A DNA stretch of 32,000 bases from Erysipelotrichaceae bacterium (GCA_963663995.1 OY760660.1:1290001-1322000); one strand, 5' to 3'. Numbered from the stretch's first letter, positions 14,209 to 24,732 are shown. Notes: generated from the letters alone by a model not told the origin. Made by a program: numbers and translations.

Positions 14209-14404
14209 ATTTTTCCTTTTTTCATGTGAATTCTCTTGATCTTCACAATCAAAAGTAAAGAGTCGTTACAACTCAAATTCATAAATTGAATGATATTTTA
14301 AATGATTCAACTTGCCTATCTTAGTTCATTTAATTGGCTTTGTAAACAAAAAGACTAATTATAATGAATATTACAGCTTGATGAATATATAAAGTGCCGA
14401 TGAT

Positions 14405-14607
14405 TGTGTTCCAGTTGATAGATTGGAAGTGATTCATATTGTATTACTCATTCAAGCAATGATATTAATCACATCAATCGCAGATTGAATCGCTTTTATC
14501 TTAGAAAATAAGACATAACATTAAGTCAAAATAAGAACACTCTATCTTCAATTTCCATTGAGTAGAGTGTTTACAACTTTTGTAACACACTAGGTACTTC
14601 CTATACC
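14405..14607 (+). pseudogene. Decayed copy of the small-toxin module found at 20765-20991
   Basis: It aligns by eye with the reverse complement of 20765-20991: TGTGTTCC, then TTGGAAGTGAT (versus TTGGAGGTGAT), then ATT in place of ATG (14438). The remnant peptide ..IQAMILITSIAD stops at a TGA (14486) and is frameshifted relative to a downstream FYLRK* reading. The hairpin pairs AACACTCTA (14536-14544) with TAGAGTGTT (14563-14571). AACACACTAGGT follows at 14585-14596. Confidence 0.55.
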
Positions 14608-14677
14608 TATTTTGGGATAATATGGCTATTTCTTGTGATTACAGTCATAAATTAACTTAGTTGATGTTCAATCCACT

Positions 14678-14935
14678 TTATTTTTCATAATGACCTAAAC
14701 AACTTTCAATCAATATCTCATCATTATCAATTGTATAAACTAGTCTATTCTTATCATCAATTCTTCTTGAATAAGCTTGTCCGTATTTAAGCCTTTCGGG
14801 TTTTCCTTCACCAATCATTGCTCCATCTCGAACAATTGATAGAATGAGTTTATTAATTTTGAGTAATGTTTTTCTGTCTTGTGTTTGCCAATAAACATAT
14901 TCTGTCCAAGCACGAGTTGAAAATATTAATCTCAT
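14678..14935 (-). CDS. yoeB: YoeB/Txe-family type II toxin (ribosome-dependent mRNA interferase)
   Basis: 85 aa: MRLIFSTRAWTEYVYWQTQDRKTLLKINKLI...GKPERLKY...YSRRIDDKNRLVY...CLGHYEK. This is the classic YoeB pattern. It overlaps the antitoxin gene by 4 nt. Confidence 0.9.
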   Translation of the reverse strand: MRLIFSTRAWTEYVYWQTQDRKTLLKINKLILSIVRDGAMIGEGKPERLKYGQAYSRRIDDKNRLVYTIDNDEILIESCLGHYEK

Positions 14936-15210
14936 TCTTCATTAATAATTAAATCATTAATATTCATCTCAATTCCTCCACCATTATGAAGTTCAACCAT
15001 TCCATGCAAAATTTTATTTTCATATTGTAGGTTATTAATAGTTTTAATCAGTTGTTCGTACTCCGCTTCAGATAATACAACAACATTCTTATCATCATTT
15101 CGTGTCACAATTAATGAAATGTTTTCATTTGTCACTAAGTCTAATTGTTTTTTTATTGATTTTCTAAAGCTTGTAACATTTGTTGCCTTAACATTAGGTA
15201 GTGCTGTCAT
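14932..15210 (-). CDS. yefM: Phd/YefM-family type II antitoxin
   Basis: The start is set at the ATG at 15210, which follows GGAGGCGAT. MTALPNVKATNVTSFRKSIKKQLDLV...IVTRNDDKNVVVLSEAEYEQL is a typical YefM N-domain. Confidence 0.85.
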   Translation of the reverse strand: MTALPNVKATNVTSFRKSIKKQLDLVTNENISLIVTRNDDKNVVVLSEAEYEQLIKTINNLQYENKILHGMVELHNGGGIEMNINDLIINEE

Positions 15211-15221
15211 ATCGCCTCCAC

Positions 15222-15258
15222 TGTACGTTTTTGTGTACTTTATCATGTACATATTATA
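15222..15258 (-). promoter_or_regulatory. yefM-yoeB promoter -10 box plus three phased GTACA operator hexamers
   Basis: The minus strand reads TATAAT (15258-15253), then TGTACA (15251-15246), AGTACA (15239-15234) and CGTACA (15227-15222). The hexamer starts are exactly 12 bp apart, just upstream of the SD. Confidence 0.6.
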
Positions 15259-19068: not shown

Positions 19069-19316
19069 TTCACCTCTTGTGTCCTTAGTTTAGTTTTTAA
19101 GTGATAACTCAGGGTTAATTGTGAATTGACTTATATGATTATTCCTTAAGGGATATCACTTTAAGTAAATGGGTAGTGTAGATGATTTATGTTGAGCCTT
19201 GGGTTCAAAAAAATGTTTAATACGTTAGATGAAAATTTCTGAACATTTCTTTAGTATTTTTGTACATGCTTTGTTATACTAGTTCGGTATGGCTAAAATG
19301 CCTCAATGGAGAACAT

Positions 19317-19865
19317 ATGACAGAGAAGAAAATAGCTAATCCAGGTCCTTTAGGCTTGTTAGGCTTCGGGATGACAACCATCCTACTAAACTTACATAAC
19401 GCAGGGATTATTCCACTATCAATTGTGATTATCTCAATGGGTATTGCTTTAGGTGGTTTAGCACAACTTATTGCAGGAATATTAGAATTTAAAAACGGTA
19501 ATACTTTTGCTGGTACTGCCTTTACAGCTTATGGAGCATTTTGGTGGTCTTTAGTTGCGATATGGATGTTAGCACCAGAAGGTTTAGCTGCTGATTCTAT
19601 ATCTATGGGTTATTACTTAGGGATTTGGGGAATCTTTACAGGGTTCATGTTTATTGGAACCCTCACTCACAACAAGGCTACTCAAGTTGTATTCTTGTCA
19701 TTAACCGTATTATTCATATTATTAGCCATTGGCGATTTCACAGGTTCAAGTTTAATTAAAACGATCGCTGGATTTGAAGGTATCTTCTGTGGTGCTTCAG
19801 CTTTCTATAGTGCTGTTGGTCAAATTGTGAACGGCGAACATAACAAAACAATCTTCCCTCTTTAA
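19317..19865 (+). CDS. GPR1/FUN34/YaaH (SatP)-family acetate/succinate channel
   Basis: The start is set at the ATG at 19317, which follows GGAG. MTEKKIANPGPLGLLGFGMTTILLNLHNAG carries the family signature NPxPLGLxGF. Six TM helices. Confidence 0.85.
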   Translation: MTEKKIANPGPLGLLGFGMTTILLNLHNAGIIPLSIVIISMGIALGGLAQLIAGILEFKNGNTFAGTAFTAYGAFWWSLVAIWMLAPEGLAADSISMGYYLGIWGIFTGFMFIGTLTHNKATQVVFLSLTVLFILLAIGDFTGSSLIKTIAGFEGIFCGASAFYSAVGQIVNGEHNKTIFPL

Positions 19866-20645: not shown

Positions 20646-20797
20646 CGTTTGACCTCCTTAGTCACTCAAAGTTTAATCAAATAGGAACATAAAAAGGTCA
20701 ATTCAAAATTGACTTATTAAATCTTAAAATATTAGGAAAACAAGATTATTCGGAGTAAAATAAAGGTAGAGAAACACCTAGTGTGTTCCTTCGGTTG

Positions 20798-20847
20798 AAA
20801 AAAACACTCTACTCTTGGGAAAATTTGAGAAAGAGTGTTTTTGTTTT
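20798..20847. terminator. Bidirectional intrinsic terminator hairpin downstream of the small peptide ORF
   Basis: AACACTCTACTC (20803-20814) pairs with GAGAAAGAGTGTT (20827-20839). An A7 run lies on one side (20798-20804) and TTTTTGTTTT on the other. Confidence 0.7.
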
Positions 20848-20849
20848 GT

Positions 20850-20936
20850 TTACTTATGTCTTTTAAGATAAAAGATGGCGTAAATCAATTCAAAGATAGA
20901 TACGATTAAAATCATAGCTTGTATGAAATCACTCAT
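20850..20936 (-). CDS. 28-aa hydrophobic peptide, candidate type I toxin / holin-like toxin (not in the supplied ORF track)
   Basis: The ATG at 20936 lies 8 nt after GGAGG of GGAGGTGAT (20949-20941). The stop is TAA at 20852-20850. The translation is MSDFIQAMILIVSIFELIYAIFYLKRHK: a single TM helix plus a basic tail. It is followed directly by a strong terminator. Confidence 0.55.
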   Translation of the reverse strand: MSDFIQAMILIVSIFELIYAIFYLKRHK

Positions 20937-21027
20937 AACCATCACCTCCAATACTTTGATTGAAGGAACACATCTTTGATGAATCTCTACCCTTTATCTA
21001 TATGAATGATATAAACTAAGTCCTTTT

Positions 21028-21990
21028 TTAAAGTGAATTAGAACCTAAAAGTGTTTGATCATACTCATAAAGAACTGCATTTAGTTCAAATAGATCATAG
21101 TTTTTCTTCTTAATAAAATATTGCACAATTATGTCTTGTTTAGAGTACGGGCTAAAACTAAAGCCTGCTTTGTTTAATAAATTATGTGACTCAATTTGTG
21201 TTAATTTAAGGGCAATGCAGAAAGCTAAGGCCGTTGATTTAGATGGAACATAGTTTTTATTTGATCTAATCTTAGAAAAGACAGCTTTAGATACATTTGC
21301 TTTTTTATATGTTTCAACCTCGTTTAAATTTTTCTCATCAATGTATTTAAACAGTTGTTGAGAGAAGGAAATGTCATGTTGATTAATAACATCTTCTAAT
21401 TCATTATACTGAATCAAACGATCAATCTTTGGCAACAAGAAATCTACATCTTCAATTTCTAAGTTATCTGTCAAATAATCTTTCACTGAATGCGATAGTT
21501 TTTGACTTAATTCAAAAACAGATTTATCAAAGACAACTAAGAACACTTTAACTTCATGATGCATGATAAAAGCCTGAATTTCACTTAACGCAATGCTTAA
21601 AGCTTCATCTTTTGGCCAGGCATAGGTACCAGCTGATAAGAGTGGAAAAGCAATCGATGTTAAATGATTCTCAAGCACACGTTTAAAAGCATTTCGATAG
21701 GATTGTCTTAATAATTCTTTCTCATCATGCGCACCATCCGTCCACATGGGATTTGCGACATGAATAATATATTTAGATGCTAAGTTAAATGCTGGGGTAA
21801 TCACAGCTTCTCCCCAGTTAATACGCCCAAAAGGAATACAAGATTCATTCAATTGTTCGTAACCTGCCGCTTTATAAATTTTCCCAGATACAGACAAGAG
21901 ATCCCCAGGGATTAGATAAGGATTTGATGGATTCACAATCGCATCAACATTTAACTTAGTTATGTCTTCTCTAATGATATCTAGATACAT
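21028..21990 (-). CDS. Macro domain (ADP-ribose binding/hydrolase) protein fused to a C-terminal XRE-like HTH domain
   Basis: Macro motifs: DAIVNPSNPYL (NxxN), SIAFPLLSAGTYAWPKDEA (the GxYGYP-type phosphate loop), YIIHVANPMW. The C-terminus ETYKKANVSKAVFSKIRSNKNYVPSKSTALAFCIALKL is an HTH. Confidence 0.8.
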   Translation of the reverse strand: MYLDIIREDITKLNVDAIVNPSNPYLIPGDLLSVSGKIYKAAGYEQLNESCIPFGRINWGEAVITPAFNLASKYIIHVANPMWTDGAHDEKELLRQSYRNAFKRVLENHLTSIAFPLLSAGTYAWPKDEALSIALSEIQAFIMHHEVKVFLVVFDKSVFELSQKLSHSVKDYLTDNLEIEDVDFLLPKIDRLIQYNELEDVINQHDISFSQQLFKYIDEKNLNEVETYKKANVSKAVFSKIRSNKNYVPSKSTALAFCIALKLTQIESHNLLNKAGFSFSPYSKQDIIVQYFIKKKNYDLFELNAVLYEYDQTLLGSNSL

Positions 21991-22479: not shown

Positions 22480-22862
22480 ATGTGTTGATTCACTTCTTTG
22501 TCTCTTTTAATACATTCTTCTTCACTCAATGGTTTAGCTTTTGTGTAATACAAGAAATACAACAAGATATGTCGATAAACGTATTTAAAGTTAATAAAAT
22601 TAGTATCGTTAATGGTATAGCCACTTCGATCTTTATAAAGGAATCCTTCTAAAGTTAAAGCACTTATAAATGATTCAGCTTGATCATGATTGTTTAGGTT
22701 AAACAAAACATCTTTATAGCGACACCAGCCATAATTACGATTGTAAATAAAGTACGCTAAAGGAATTCCTCCATATTCAATCTTTCCATTTACTTTTGGG
22801 TAATCTCTAAAAATACAGCGATCTTGATTCTCTTCCTGATTAAAATTCAATTGTTTTTGCAT
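22476..22862 (-). CDS. Hypothetical protein (128 aa), first gene of the Macro-HTH operon; possible wHTH segment
   Basis: A strong AAGGAGG SD precedes it. AESFISALTLEGFLYKDRSGYTINDT resembles a winged-helix recognition helix plus wing, which is weak evidence. Confidence 0.5.
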   Translation of the reverse strand: MQKQLNFNQEENQDRCIFRDYPKVNGKIEYGGIPLAYFIYNRNYGWCRYKDVLFNLNNHDQAESFISALTLEGFLYKDRSGYTINDTNFINFKYVYRHILLYFLYYTKAKPLSEEECIKRDKEVNQHI

Positions 22863-23048
22863 ATAGCCTCCTTAAACAAAAAACACCTAAAGGTGTCTCT
22901 TGTTTAAATGAAGTTCACCTATCATTTAAGGTTTTAGCACCTTGACCATTGGTTAGGTTGCTGTAAGCTACGAGCCTTATCTCTAACTCACTCTTAATAG
23001 GATGTTTAATGTATTTATATTATAAAAACTGAATAGGTATTATGTAAA
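22863..23048 (-). promoter_or_regulatory. Promoter plus ~150-nt structured 5' leader (candidate riboswitch or attenuator) of the Macro-HTH operon
   Basis: On the minus strand: TTTACA (23048-23043), an 18-nt spacer, then TATAAT (23024-23019). The leader contains CCTATTAAG (23001-22993), which can pair with CTTAA-atg-ATAGG (22930-22918). It has an internal hairpin GCAACCT..AGGTGC (22961-22937) and an alternative TTAAATG/CATTTAA hairpin (22929-22923 and 22910-22904). AGGTG (22920-16) is complementary to the terminator arm CACCT (22895-91). Confidence 0.45.
22874..22905 (-). terminator. Leader-embedded intrinsic terminator immediately upstream of the SD
   Basis: The minus strand reads AAACAAGAGACACC-TTTA-GGTGTTTTTTGTTT. 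The stem is up to 14 bp including G-U pairs and is T-rich on its 3' side. It is followed by AAGGAGGctatATG. Confidence 0.6.
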
Positions 23049-23076
23049 GTTAACTGTCCCTAATATGCACAGTTAG

Positions 23077-23108
23077 AAACACTCAACTAATTGTTTGAGT
23101 GTTTTTTT
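23077..23108. terminator. Hairpin terminator between the ABC permease 3' end and the Macro operon promoter
   Basis: AAACACTCAA (23077-23086) pairs with TTGAGTGTTT (23095-23104). T7 follows on the + strand and TTTCT on the minus strand. Confidence 0.6.
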
Positions 23109-23118
23109 ATTTGACTAC

Positions 23119-24732
23119 TTATGAACCTTCAATACGATCACGTTTAATATACCCAAAATAACCTGCCACCATCATTAATAGACTTAAAACAAAAATTGAA
23201 ACAAAGACTGTTAAATCAAATTCTTTAATAGGCATTCTAGGTATCCAACTAAAGATAGCTGTTTTAGAGATAAACTCAGGTAAATCTAATAAACCACCAA
23301 AATAGTTCAAGGCAAACGAATAGGCTAAATAAATATAGATGGCATTTCTTGCTTTAGGATAATAACCAATACTCATAGCAGATAGTCCTAAAAAGAATAA
23401 AATAGCAGGTAAGAAGTTAAAGCCAGCTTTTATGAAATCCATAATAAGCATCGATGACTTCCCTTCCATCATATAAATGGCTGTATAACCTAAACCGATA
23501 GCCGAGAGTAATACCCCTAGAACTGAAGCGAGTATCGCTATCGTTAGATTCGTTAAGAAAACACTCTGATAAGTCAATTTTGATGCATAAAGTTGTGATA
23601 GATGCATCCGTTCCTCTTGAACAAATAGTTTATTTATAATTGCAATAGGCAGTATCGCAACTGTACCCAACATAACCATTATAATGACTGATGTAAATGA
23701 AGCTTCGATGGAAACACCTGAATAAGTAAACATTGCCGCAATTAACTCATTGCTTTCTAAGAATGTTTGCATATCACCATAGATAGAACCATAAGACGCA
23801 CCTAAGATAAAGTAGGTGATTAACCATGCCAATAGCATGCCTTTATTTAATCGGTAAAATAAACCAGGAACCGATAAAAGTGATTTTTTAGCATTTGCTC
23901 TTCCTTCATAAGCTGGAAGATACCCTGCATTCATATCACGATTACTTTCAAGACTGAAACTGAGGACCAGTGTTGCCAAGATAAAGACAAACGAGTAGAT
24001 AATCGGTAAATAATTATTGGTCGTAAATGGGTATGTTAAATAGATCCATCCCATTGGATTCAACATTGATAGTGATAAGTTAGACACATCTGTTGCCCCT
24101 CTCACTAAATACATGAGTCCAATAATTCCCATACTCATTCCAATTGCACCTGTAGATGTCTCATTAATTTGAGCCATCACTAAAGCGATAACAGCTCCGA
24201 TTAATCCAGCCATCATTACTGTTAATGCGAATAAAAATGATCCATAAGCATCTATACTTTCAACTTGAAAAACAATCATGGTAGAGGCAATAACAAGCGC
24301 CAACAAGCCATTAATTACGATGGCTTCAATAAACAATGCAAATGAATTTGATAAGCGACCTACTTGATAAGATTGAATGAGTTCTGTAAAACCTAATTCC
24401 TCATCTTTACGTGAGTGAGAAATAATATGAAGGGCTTGTATAATCATCGCAAACAATCCACAAAATAGTAACATTTCTTGTGCATACATCGCCCCAAGTG
24501 TATATTCAGTGGCACTTTGAATAGGGGTTGGTCCAACCATCGCAATCATGGCTGGATTCAACATCGTTTGATACATACCGATTAAACCCTGTCCAGATCC
24601 AATTTCTTCAAAAGCTGGGACAAACCCTCCGGTAAATAAACCAAGACCTAAAATCCATATTAATGCTTTTCGTAAATCACGCTTTAAAAGTGTTTTAAAT
24701 AAAACTTCCCAGCGTACAATTTCTTTCAACAT
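23119..24732 (-). CDS. ABC-2-type exporter permease (12 TM)
   Basis: 537 aa, highly hydrophobic with two 6-TM halves. It lies immediately downstream of the ABC ATPase. Confidence 0.8.
   Translation of the reverse strand: MLKEIVRWEVLFKTLLKRDLRKALIWILGLGLFTGGFVPAFEEIGSGQGLIGMYQTMLNPAMIAMVGPTPIQSATEYTLGAMYAQEMLLFCGLFAMIIQALHIISHSRKDEELGFTELIQSYQVGRLSNSFALFIEAIVINGLLALVIASTMIVFQVESIDAYGSFLFALTVMMAGLIGAVIALVMAQINETSTGAIGMSMGIIGLMYLVRGATDVSNLSLSMLNPMGWIYLTYPFTTNNYLPIIYSFVFILATLVLSFSLESNRDMNAGYLPAYEGRANAKKSLLSVPGLFYRLNKGMLLAWLITYFILGASYGSIYGDMQTFLESNELIAAMFTYSGVSIEASFTSVIIMVMLGTVAILPIAIINKLFVQEERMHLSQLYASKLTYQSVFLTNLTIAILASVLGVLLSAIGLGYTAIYMMEGKSSMLIMDFIKAGFNFLPAILFFLGLSAMSIGYYPKARNAIYIYLAYSFALNYFGGLLDLPEFISKTAIFSWIPRMPIKEFDLTVFVSIFVLSLLMMVAGYFGYIKRDRIEGS

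Follow-up and report, generated by a model that had tools for sequence, protein, structure and literature searches.

Loci of the par type, a form of type I toxin-antitoxin system, carry convergent promoters, a shared bidirectional terminator, direct repeats that add a second stretch of complementarity at the translation initiation region, and a 5' stem-loop concealing the Shine-Dalgarno (SD) sequence (PMC7472228). The Fst-type toxins are defined by a PXXXG motif and a tryptophan (PMC7472228). Among the Gram-positive families, an overlap of the two RNAs at their 3' ends that spares the open reading frame (ORF) is found only in Fst/RNAII and SprA1/SprA1AS (T1TAdb, PMC8594479), and an interaction outside the overlap is likewise confined to these two (PMC8594479). 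Here we describe a locus of similar layout in a 32,000-nucleotide (nt) stretch of DNA from an Erysipelotrichaceae bacterium (OY760660.1, 1290001-1322000; hereafter the window), in the gap between a gene for a vWA protein and a Macro-HTH gene. It encodes a 28-amino-acid (28-aa) single-helix peptide and is probably a type I toxin-antitoxin-like module on the par/Fst-RNAII plan, its toxin peptide representing a new sequence family. Together with its relatives it looks like a new family of RNA-controlled toxin-antitoxin modules in uncultured Erysipelotrichales-like bacteria, a group for which no description of a type I system was found in the literature searched.

The small open reading frame and its relatives

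An earlier reading of the window (the original prediction) had placed in this gap an overlooked small-peptide module built like a type I locus: a minus-strand ORF of 28 aa with its SD, a bidirectional hairpin terminator with A and T runs, and flanking inverted repeats. Re-reading the sequence recovered the ORF, the SD, the terminator, and the repeats where they had been placed (Table 1), and comparison with related genomes supports the module as a whole, the SD core and the terminator stems being invariant in all units and the repeats conserved in relatives. Within the window the 11-mer repeat is only weakly unusual (two or more matches in 9 of 100 shuffles), and the case against chance therefore rests on that comparison.

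The relatives were reached through the flanking genes, the peptide itself not being retrievable by protein search. The syntenic contigs L010 and L011-L018 were found through homologues sharing about 70% identity with the vWA protein, and contigs L026 and L027 through a helicase homologue; exact look-ups of the proteins of the window's own genes found none on record. The best named relatives of the helicase belong to Erysipelothrix sp., Coprobacillaceae, Erysipelotrichaceae, and Breznakia (64-66% identity), which places the host, with its genome of about 1.95 Mb, among uncultured Erysipelotrichales-like bacteria. When tblastn and a nucleotide profile were used to search for the unit, which is about 290 base pairs (bp) long, three related genomes yielded at least 11 distinct intact copies together with decayed ones; the profile (nhmmer) E values for related copies were 1e-44 to 1e-83. 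Contig L010 has four intact copies, three of them in tandem, and one copy with a premature stop. Of the six intact copies on the L011 contig, three form a tandem triplet, two stand in tandem at the syntenic spot, and one is solitary; one more copy is on L026, which comes from the sample of L018, a near-identical locus. The arrays (L010 1500-2520; L011 350-1240 and 3310-3950) hold two or three complete units each. The pattern is thus multicopy, partly in tandem arrays, with decayed copies included; tandem repeats have served as a search criterion for type I loci (T1TAdb, PMC8594479). Gene callers called no gene in these gaps on any contig examined.

One decayed copy lies in the window itself (Table 1). 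Its SD has become GGAAG and its ATG has become ATT, an in-frame stop interrupts the reading frame, and the U-tract of its terminator is lost; the positional counterpart in L026 (2704-2978) is intact and encodes MEILIQVMILIISIIDLIVFILFNKKNH. The decayed copy adjoins a YoeB-like (85 aa) and YefM-like (106 aa) pair on the minus strand (14678-14935 and 14932-15252), named from sequence and from the Pfam-annotated counterparts PhdYeFM_antitox and YoeB_toxin (L011 9985-10517, L026 1671-2203). Beyond the close relatives the unit was not encountered: more distant relatives (helicase at 70% identity or less, vWA at 58%) had none in the stretches examined, and a contig scan with the Macro-HTH neighbor returned only relatives at 35-41% identity, with no units. 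A metagenome scan with the terminator-plus-arm pattern gave two chance matches only, at a TatA terminator, a scan of viral collections gave chance terminators only, and blastn and tblastn searches of plasmids and phages gave no matches.

Across the copies the ORF changes as a coding sequence does. It has 28 codons in every non-decayed copy (26 in one subtype) with no insertions or deletions at 50-96% nucleotide identity, while insertions and deletions are confined to the untranslated regions on both of its sides. All intact copies in the three genomes retain the reading frame, start, stop, and SD, and codon position 2 is the most conserved (0.89, versus 0.73 at positions 1 and 3). The syntenic pair L010_4696 and L011_3394 differs by 10 synonymous and 6 non-synonymous changes, giving a ratio of non-synonymous to synonymous rates (dN/dS) of 0.06, and the ratio is below 1 in most other pairs of copies. 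On this comparative evidence the ORF is a genuine gene under purifying selection. The original prediction had singled out a hairpin kept without its ORF as one pattern that would speak against it; the ORF itself is conserved as a coding sequence, and not just the hairpin, so the prediction holds on this point. Two other candidate frames were dropped. A plus-strand ORF running through the terminator (20783-20866) lacks an SD, and the other units do not preserve it as an ORF; an upstream TTG start for the toxin ORF (MEVMVM...) was rejected because that TTG lies inside the SD.

An alignment of the 11 peptides shows M1, I5, Q6, and K25 to be invariant and reveals a conserved polar stripe along the helix, formed by Q6, S/A13, D/E16, and S/T20. 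Polar residues at positions 2, 6, 13, 16, and 20 lie on one helix face with i, i+4, i+7 spacing. A polar stripe of this kind, with an Asp or Glu in the middle of the transmembrane segment, suggests an oligomerizing or pore-lining face.

No known family claims this peptide. A phmmer search with a 33-aa form against 1.84 billion representative proteins and a search with a profile of the concatenated family peptides against 5.8 billion proteins each gave no matches. The Pfam toxin models matched none of the 11 members at E<=10, NCBIfam gave nothing, and searches of PHROGs and PADLOC with the peptides, and of PADLOC with the neighboring proteins, produced no consistent match. The resemblance to the Hol-Tox family noted in the original prediction proved a false lead: PF16935 matched neither the window peptide nor any of the 11 members at E<=10, and the positive controls TxpA and BsrG scored 31.3 and 34.5 bits, above the 23.3-bit cutoff. 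The Fst_toxin model PF13955 likewise gave no match at E<=10, and its controls Fst and PepA1 matched at about 1e-5. A search of the family profile against the PDB found neither Fst (2KV5) nor PepA1 (4B19), both of which are present there, and hhalign gave a probability of 0.4% against Fst. The PXXXG(C) motif and the conserved tryptophan are absent; the alignment of 11 peptides contains no G or W, and a single P occurs in one divergent copy.

Predicted transcripts and their pairings

Every unit is built on the same architecture. Read in the toxin sense, it opens with a -35-like TAGGAa, 17 nt, a -10-like TATTAA, about 6 nt, GTAGAGA, a small hairpin, and GTGTTCCTTCA; the middle holds a loop, TTGGAGGTG, 8 nt, the ATG, 28 codons, and the stop. 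There follow the terminator, ACAAAACAAAAACACTCT ... AGAGTGTTTTT, then TGAAGGAACAC, a hairpin, and TCTCTAC, and the unit closes with ATTGTATA, about 16 nt, and TGTCCTA. On the opposite strand the last two blocks read AGGACA-16-TACAAT, with GTAGAGA 4 nt on. Because promoter-like boxes are thus followed by GTAGAGA on the opposite strand also, the two repeat arms are best read as roughly the initial 30 nt of two convergent predicted transcripts rather than as transposon ends. The toxin leader arm is conserved in all units (majority fraction of arm 1, 0.92) and mirrors the antisense leader. A profile test for homology of the two leaders gave a weak result (E 0.007, in the window), and the mirror architecture is therefore taken as an observation, not as proven common descent.

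Both promoters are predictions, matched by consensus and conservation only. AGGACA-16-TACAAT is, by its sequence, a near-consensus predicted promoter of the sigma-A type. On the antisense side conservation is 0.90 in the -35 box, 0.90 in the -10 box, 0.68 in the spacer, and 0.38 beyond the -35 box; these boxes were found independently by a consensus scan of the units of four relatives, and they align gap-free and in register across units. The toxin-side boxes, anchored on GTAG, also align gap-free with 11 other units as TAGGAa-17-TATTAA-6-GTAGAG. The antisense promoter is the closer of the two to consensus (AGGACA/TACAAT versus AGGAAT/TATTAA); an antitoxin promoter stronger than that of the toxin is the usual type I pattern. 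The original prediction had proposed a plus-strand RNA that ends at the same hairpin, and such an RNA is the best reading of the conserved boxes. It had the RNA start from TTCAAA-17-TAAAAT at 20702-20730, a consensus match that exists but lies outside the conserved unit, the conserved boxes being those in Table 1. The predicted antisense RNA takes in the downstream repeat arm of the original prediction (20765-20792).

Table 1. Features of the module and of its decayed copy, in window positions (minus-strand elements written high->low)
Feature	Position	Strand	Remarks
SD, GGAGGTGAT	20949->20941	-	GGAGG-ATG gap 8 nt; TTGGAGG invariant in all units
Toxin-like ORF, MSDFIQAMILIVSIFELIYAIFYLKRHK	20850..20936	-	ATG 20936, stop 20850-20852; 28 codons plus stop; one transmembrane helix, basic tail, polar Q6, S13, E16, A/S/T20
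Shared bidirectional intrinsic terminator	20798..20848	both	Sole overlap of the two predicted RNAs, ~45-50 nt
Terminator outer stem, AAAAACACTCT / AGAGTGTTTTT	20800-20810 / 20832-20842		Perfect 11 bp
Terminator flanks	20798-20804 / 20838-20847		A7 on one side, T5GT4 on the other
Inverted-repeat pair, TGTGTTCCTTC / GAAGGAACACA	20782-20792 / 20962-20972		100% complementary
Inverted-repeat pair, AAAGGTAGAGA / TCTCTACCCTT	20762-20772 / 20984-20994		91% complementary
Predicted toxin promoter	20997..21025	-	-35-like AAGGAC (21025->21020), 17-nt spacer, -10-like TATAGA (21002->20997)
Predicted toxin mRNA, ~195 nt	20796..20990	-	Leader GUAGAGA to U7 tract after the hairpin; 5' end inferred from -10 spacing, 3' end from the intrinsic terminator
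Toxin-mRNA leader (upstream repeat arm)	20962..20991	-	GGTAGAGA, small hairpin CAUC-AAA-GAUG, then TGTGTTCCTTC
SD-sequestering hairpin (predicted)	20945..20966	-	Anti-SD CCUUCAAU (20966->20959) with AUUGGAGG (20952->20945), loop CAAAGU
Predicted antitoxin-RNA promoter	20733..20761	+	-35-like TAGGAA 20733-20738, 17-nt spacer, -10 TAAAAT 20756-20761
Predicted antisense small RNA, ~80 nt	20766..20848	+	5' stem-loop, anti-SD, shared terminator
5' stem-loop of the predicted antisense RNA	20769-20791	+	GAG-AACAC/GUGUU-CUU; anti-SD CCUUCGGU at 20788-20795
Second, decayed copy of the unit	14397..14612	+	nhmmer E 1.1e-18 and the sequence itself

In the folded models the CCUUC arm of the leader hides the SD of the predicted toxin mRNA. 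The hairpin is part of the minimum-free-energy fold of all 11 terminated mRNAs, where all five SD bases pair with the upstream arm; its helix has 8-12 bp in every intact unit and is lost in the decayed copy. Two-sided changes maintain it between units (CAAU/AUUG, CAAA/UUUG, CAGU/ACUG, and CUAGUCA/UGAUUG). In the predicted antisense RNA the 5' stem-loop is closed by pairing of GAG, from GUAGAGA, with CUU, from the anti-SD, around AACAC/GUGUU; the consensus fold and the per-unit folds agree on it. For 10 of the 11 units, pairing of 7-11 bp, G-U pairs included, is possible between the anti-SD of this RNA, CCUUCNGU, and the cognate SD region, and in two units the trans copy CCUCCAAU complements that region better than the cis copy does. 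A partner for the 5' GUAGAGA inside the ORF, which would be the analogue of the 5'-UH of par, was also sought; the candidates vary from unit to unit and we make no claim for them.

The robust complementarity between the two predicted RNAs is the terminator hairpin, 45-50 nt and perfect. Its stems are invariant across units (0.91-0.95), and no part of the unit varies more than its loop (0.60), so that each unit in an array could have its own partner. No Rfam family, those of antitoxins included, matches the predicted antisense RNA. At L010 2022-2120 on the minus strand there is a sub-threshold match to ctRNA_pT181 (27.1 bits against a gathering cutoff of 56, E 0.38), which probably reflects a shared stem-loop-plus-terminator shape.

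Comparison among the copies shows a coding ORF accompanied by conserved putative RNA and promoter elements in fixed register, and these elements suggest how the locus might work. In the model that we favor, a weak minus-strand promoter would give the predicted mRNA for a single-helix membrane peptide, and the leader motif CCUUCAAU would fold onto AUUGGAGG in that mRNA to conceal the ribosome-binding site. A stronger, conserved plus-strand promoter would give the predicted small RNA, which would end at the same bidirectional terminator and have an anti-SD of its own, set in a 5' stem-loop with weak pairing. On the analogy of par, contact between the RNAs would begin at the complementary terminator loops and be cognate-specific; the anti-SD of the small RNA would then keep the SD closed, the duplex would be cleaved, or both, and peptide would be made only upon depletion of the small RNA. 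Both transcripts and both pairings are predicted from such models, and the toxicity of the peptide, like the order of events, is proposed from the same analogy.

Several observations weigh against this type I reading. The -35 boxes are far from consensus, and the peptide lacks the PXXXG motif and tryptophan of the Fst family and matches no toxin hidden Markov model. At 7-11 bp, of which up to four are G-U pairs, the modeled anti-SD pairing in trans is short, and it is no better than the pairing in cis; trans duplex predictions beat shuffled controls in only about 4 of 10 units, and in the unit L011_7492 the trans pairing amounts to 4 bp only. The small-RNA model also would not account for the apparent co-evolution of the two leaders within units, which is taken up below.

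Alternative readings, neighborhood, and significance

One alternative, which we consider unlikely, is that the ORF is an ordinary gene for a small, non-toxic membrane protein, that the hairpin just ends the Macro-HTH operon, and that the plus-strand RNA is unrelated or has a tuning role. Many small hydrophobic proteins are non-toxic, and the toxicity of this one is argued from analogy. There is, in addition, no terminator between the Macro-HTH stop codon (21028) and the module, and the hairpin therefore probably also ends the operon of the 128-aa, 158-aa, and Macro-HTH genes, read-through from which may feed the toxin mRNA. This alternative sits poorly with tandem arrays of up to three complete units, with copies at several unrelated genomic sites, and with the presence of decayed copies, and an SD-hiding hairpin matched by a predicted convergent anti-SD RNA in each unit would be unexpected for a housekeeping membrane protein.

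The leaders raise a different possibility. The two leaders are more alike within units than between them (mean alignment score 13.3 versus 7.9; 0 of 10000 permutations), and the likeness persists without the SD-matching part (10.4 versus 7.1). Matching to a common SD covers only the 3' part of this likeness, and the rest thus needs another cause; in the window (20762-20792 versus 20962-20994) and in all related units the match exceeds the shared pairing with the SD. It would follow if the inverted arms undergo gene conversion with each other, or if selection favors leader-tail pairing in a read-through RNA; a partner shared by the two leaders is a third candidate cause. The original prediction had entertained a 5'-3' clamp in the style of hok and AapA1. 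No such clamp can form in the terminated mRNA, as its 3' arm lies after the U-tract (0 leader nt pair beyond the terminator in 11 units), whereas in a read-through RNA it is thermodynamically available and fits the co-evolution of the arms. The alternative built on it, that a read-through clamp acts instead of or besides the small RNA, with the tail GAAGGAACAC...UCUCUAC pairing with the leader and changing whether the SD is hidden, appears rather improbable. Folding the window sequence with its tail does pair leader to tail (z = -3.5), a hypothetical read-through RNA gains 15-26 kcal/mol in 11 of 11 units with 11-27 leader nt paired past the terminator, 6 of 11 read-through folds separate the SD from its cis partner, and likeness of the arms within units is what selection for complementarity would predict. 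That 3' arm, however, follows a canonical terminator with a perfect 11-bp stem, an extension, and U7; the middle segments of the arms are not complementary, each forming its own small hairpin; and the same co-evolution would also result from gene conversion between the inverted arms. Because it leaves unexplained why the -10 and -35 boxes, located 10-45 nt past the arm, are conserved, the clamp cannot replace the small-RNA model.

More tentatively, and as a possibility that we hold with considerable doubt, the antitoxin RNA may be an inverted mirror copy of the toxin promoter and anti-SD leader placed behind a bidirectional terminator, so that the trans antitoxin would be a detached copy of the cis lock, with the leaders kept matched by gene conversion or by pairing of a read-through tail that reopens the SD. 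If this is true, and the tail does reopen the SD, the locus would illustrate a route by which type I antitoxins originate and a switch that senses read-through.

It is very unlikely that the unit is a miniature inverted-repeat transposable element (MITE) with the arms as its terminal inverted repeats and the ORF incidental, an alternative raised in the original prediction. Inverted repeats do bracket the unit, which is multicopy and occupies different sites in related genomes. The repeats are nevertheless internal, homology running about 35 nt beyond them to promoter-like -35 and -10 boxes at fixed spacing, and the interior is an ORF under purifying selection with invariant length, SD, and start, and on these two grounds we reject the MITE. 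No target-site duplications were seen at the unit ends, which were not searched systematically for them, and the plasmid, phage, and viral collections held no matches. A leader peptide and attenuator for the downstream vWA gene is scarcely credible: ORF and terminator do lie upstream of that gene on the same strand in the window, but in relatives the units stand in tandem triplets, upstream of an opposite-strand FTR1 gene, or convergent with other genes, so that the unit has no constant downstream gene.

Several features of the surroundings were noted beside these readings. The Macro-HTH stop codon (21028-21030) lies 3 nt from the toxin -35-like box, and the arrangement is the same in L010 and L011. 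A gene of the GPR1/FUN34/YaaH family (window 19260-19865, plus strand) stands between the vWA gene and a 283-aa gene; its counterpart in relatives follows the Sel1-repeat gene (L010 7620-8168, L011 7693-8241). In the L011 type an inserted FTR1 iron-permease gene separates the toxin pair from the vWA gene. The triplet arrays of relatives lie upstream of a 127-aa/163-aa/Macro-HTH operon, where the window has no unit (22862-23119). The toxin units are found at the joints of a rearranging region. In L019 (2014-2817), whose vWA protein is a 58% relative, the place upstream of the vWA gene is taken by an ADP-ribosylglycohydrolase and not by the Macro-domain protein. Each of these folds removes ADP-ribose, a hint that some functional tie to the vWA, 283-aa, and Sel1 genes is conserved.

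The module was missed by gene callers and matches no toxin, RNA, or defense family, and yet each element expected of an RNA-regulated toxin module of the par kind has unusually clear comparative support. If the type I reading is confirmed, the peptides would form a new family with a conserved polar helix stripe, and the 11 or more diverged units would be a natural series in which to follow the evolution of cis and trans anti-SD sequences and of loop specificity in tandem arrays. The mirrored, co-evolving leaders are a real loose end beside an unusually complete comparative picture.

Comparison with described type I systems

New type I families are reported regularly, and the locus is best placed by comparison with four described groups. 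The TxpA/RatA, BsrG/SR4, and BsrE/SR5 systems of Bacillus subtilis are also Gram-positive, with convergent RNAs that overlap at their 3' ends, and the N-termini of the Hol_Tox toxins, MS.(Y/F)(E/Q), bear a superficial likeness to the MSDFIQ found here. In those systems the antisense RNA overlaps the ORF (PMC8594479). The predicted antisense RNA described here overlaps the terminator only, and the txpA/RatA geometry suggested in the original prediction does not apply. In hok/Sok and AapA1/IsoA1, as here, the SD is hidden by folding of the mRNA and long-range 5'-3' pairing is possible; there, however, that pairing forms inside the terminated transcript and the antisense RNA pairs with its 5' part, whereas here the 3' arm lies past the terminator.

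SprA1 (PepA1)/SprA1AS of Staphylococcus aureus has a similar layout, with an overlap at the 3' ends and functional pairing proposed outside it, at the SD and start codon (PMC8594479). PepA1 belongs to the Fst family and matches PF13955, and the peptide described here does not.

Like par(pAD1) Fst/RNA II of Enterococcus faecalis, the module has a bidirectional intrinsic terminator whose complementary stem-loops would be the only overlap of its two RNAs, and its predicted promoters would converge as those of par do. Both antisense RNAs, the one here as predicted, leave the ORF uncovered, and in both loci an intramolecular stem-loop, predicted here and the 5'-SL in par, hides the SD. In par the 5' region of the antisense RNA complements the initiation region, and the predicted RNA here might do so through the short direct repeat ATTGGAGG / ACTGAAGG on either side of the terminator: since an SD-like motif follows the terminator (ACTGAAGG or ATTGGAGG in the toxin sense), the unit in effect holds a short direct repeat of its SD region. 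Both toxins are about 30 aa long, with one helix and a charged tail (PMC7472228). The tail is basic here and acidic in Fst. Where par has DRa and DRb, the locus here has a single short motif of 7-11 bp that leaves the start codon uncovered; the predicted RNA, at about 80 nt, is longer than RNA II (about 40 nt); and the two RNAs here also share a 5' leader of like sense, which makes the inverted repeats. Given a par-like layout and an unrelated peptide, we file the locus, on its sequence features, as one that would work like par and yet lie outside the Fst family. Its novelty is that of a new family within a known kind of system, not that of a new kind.

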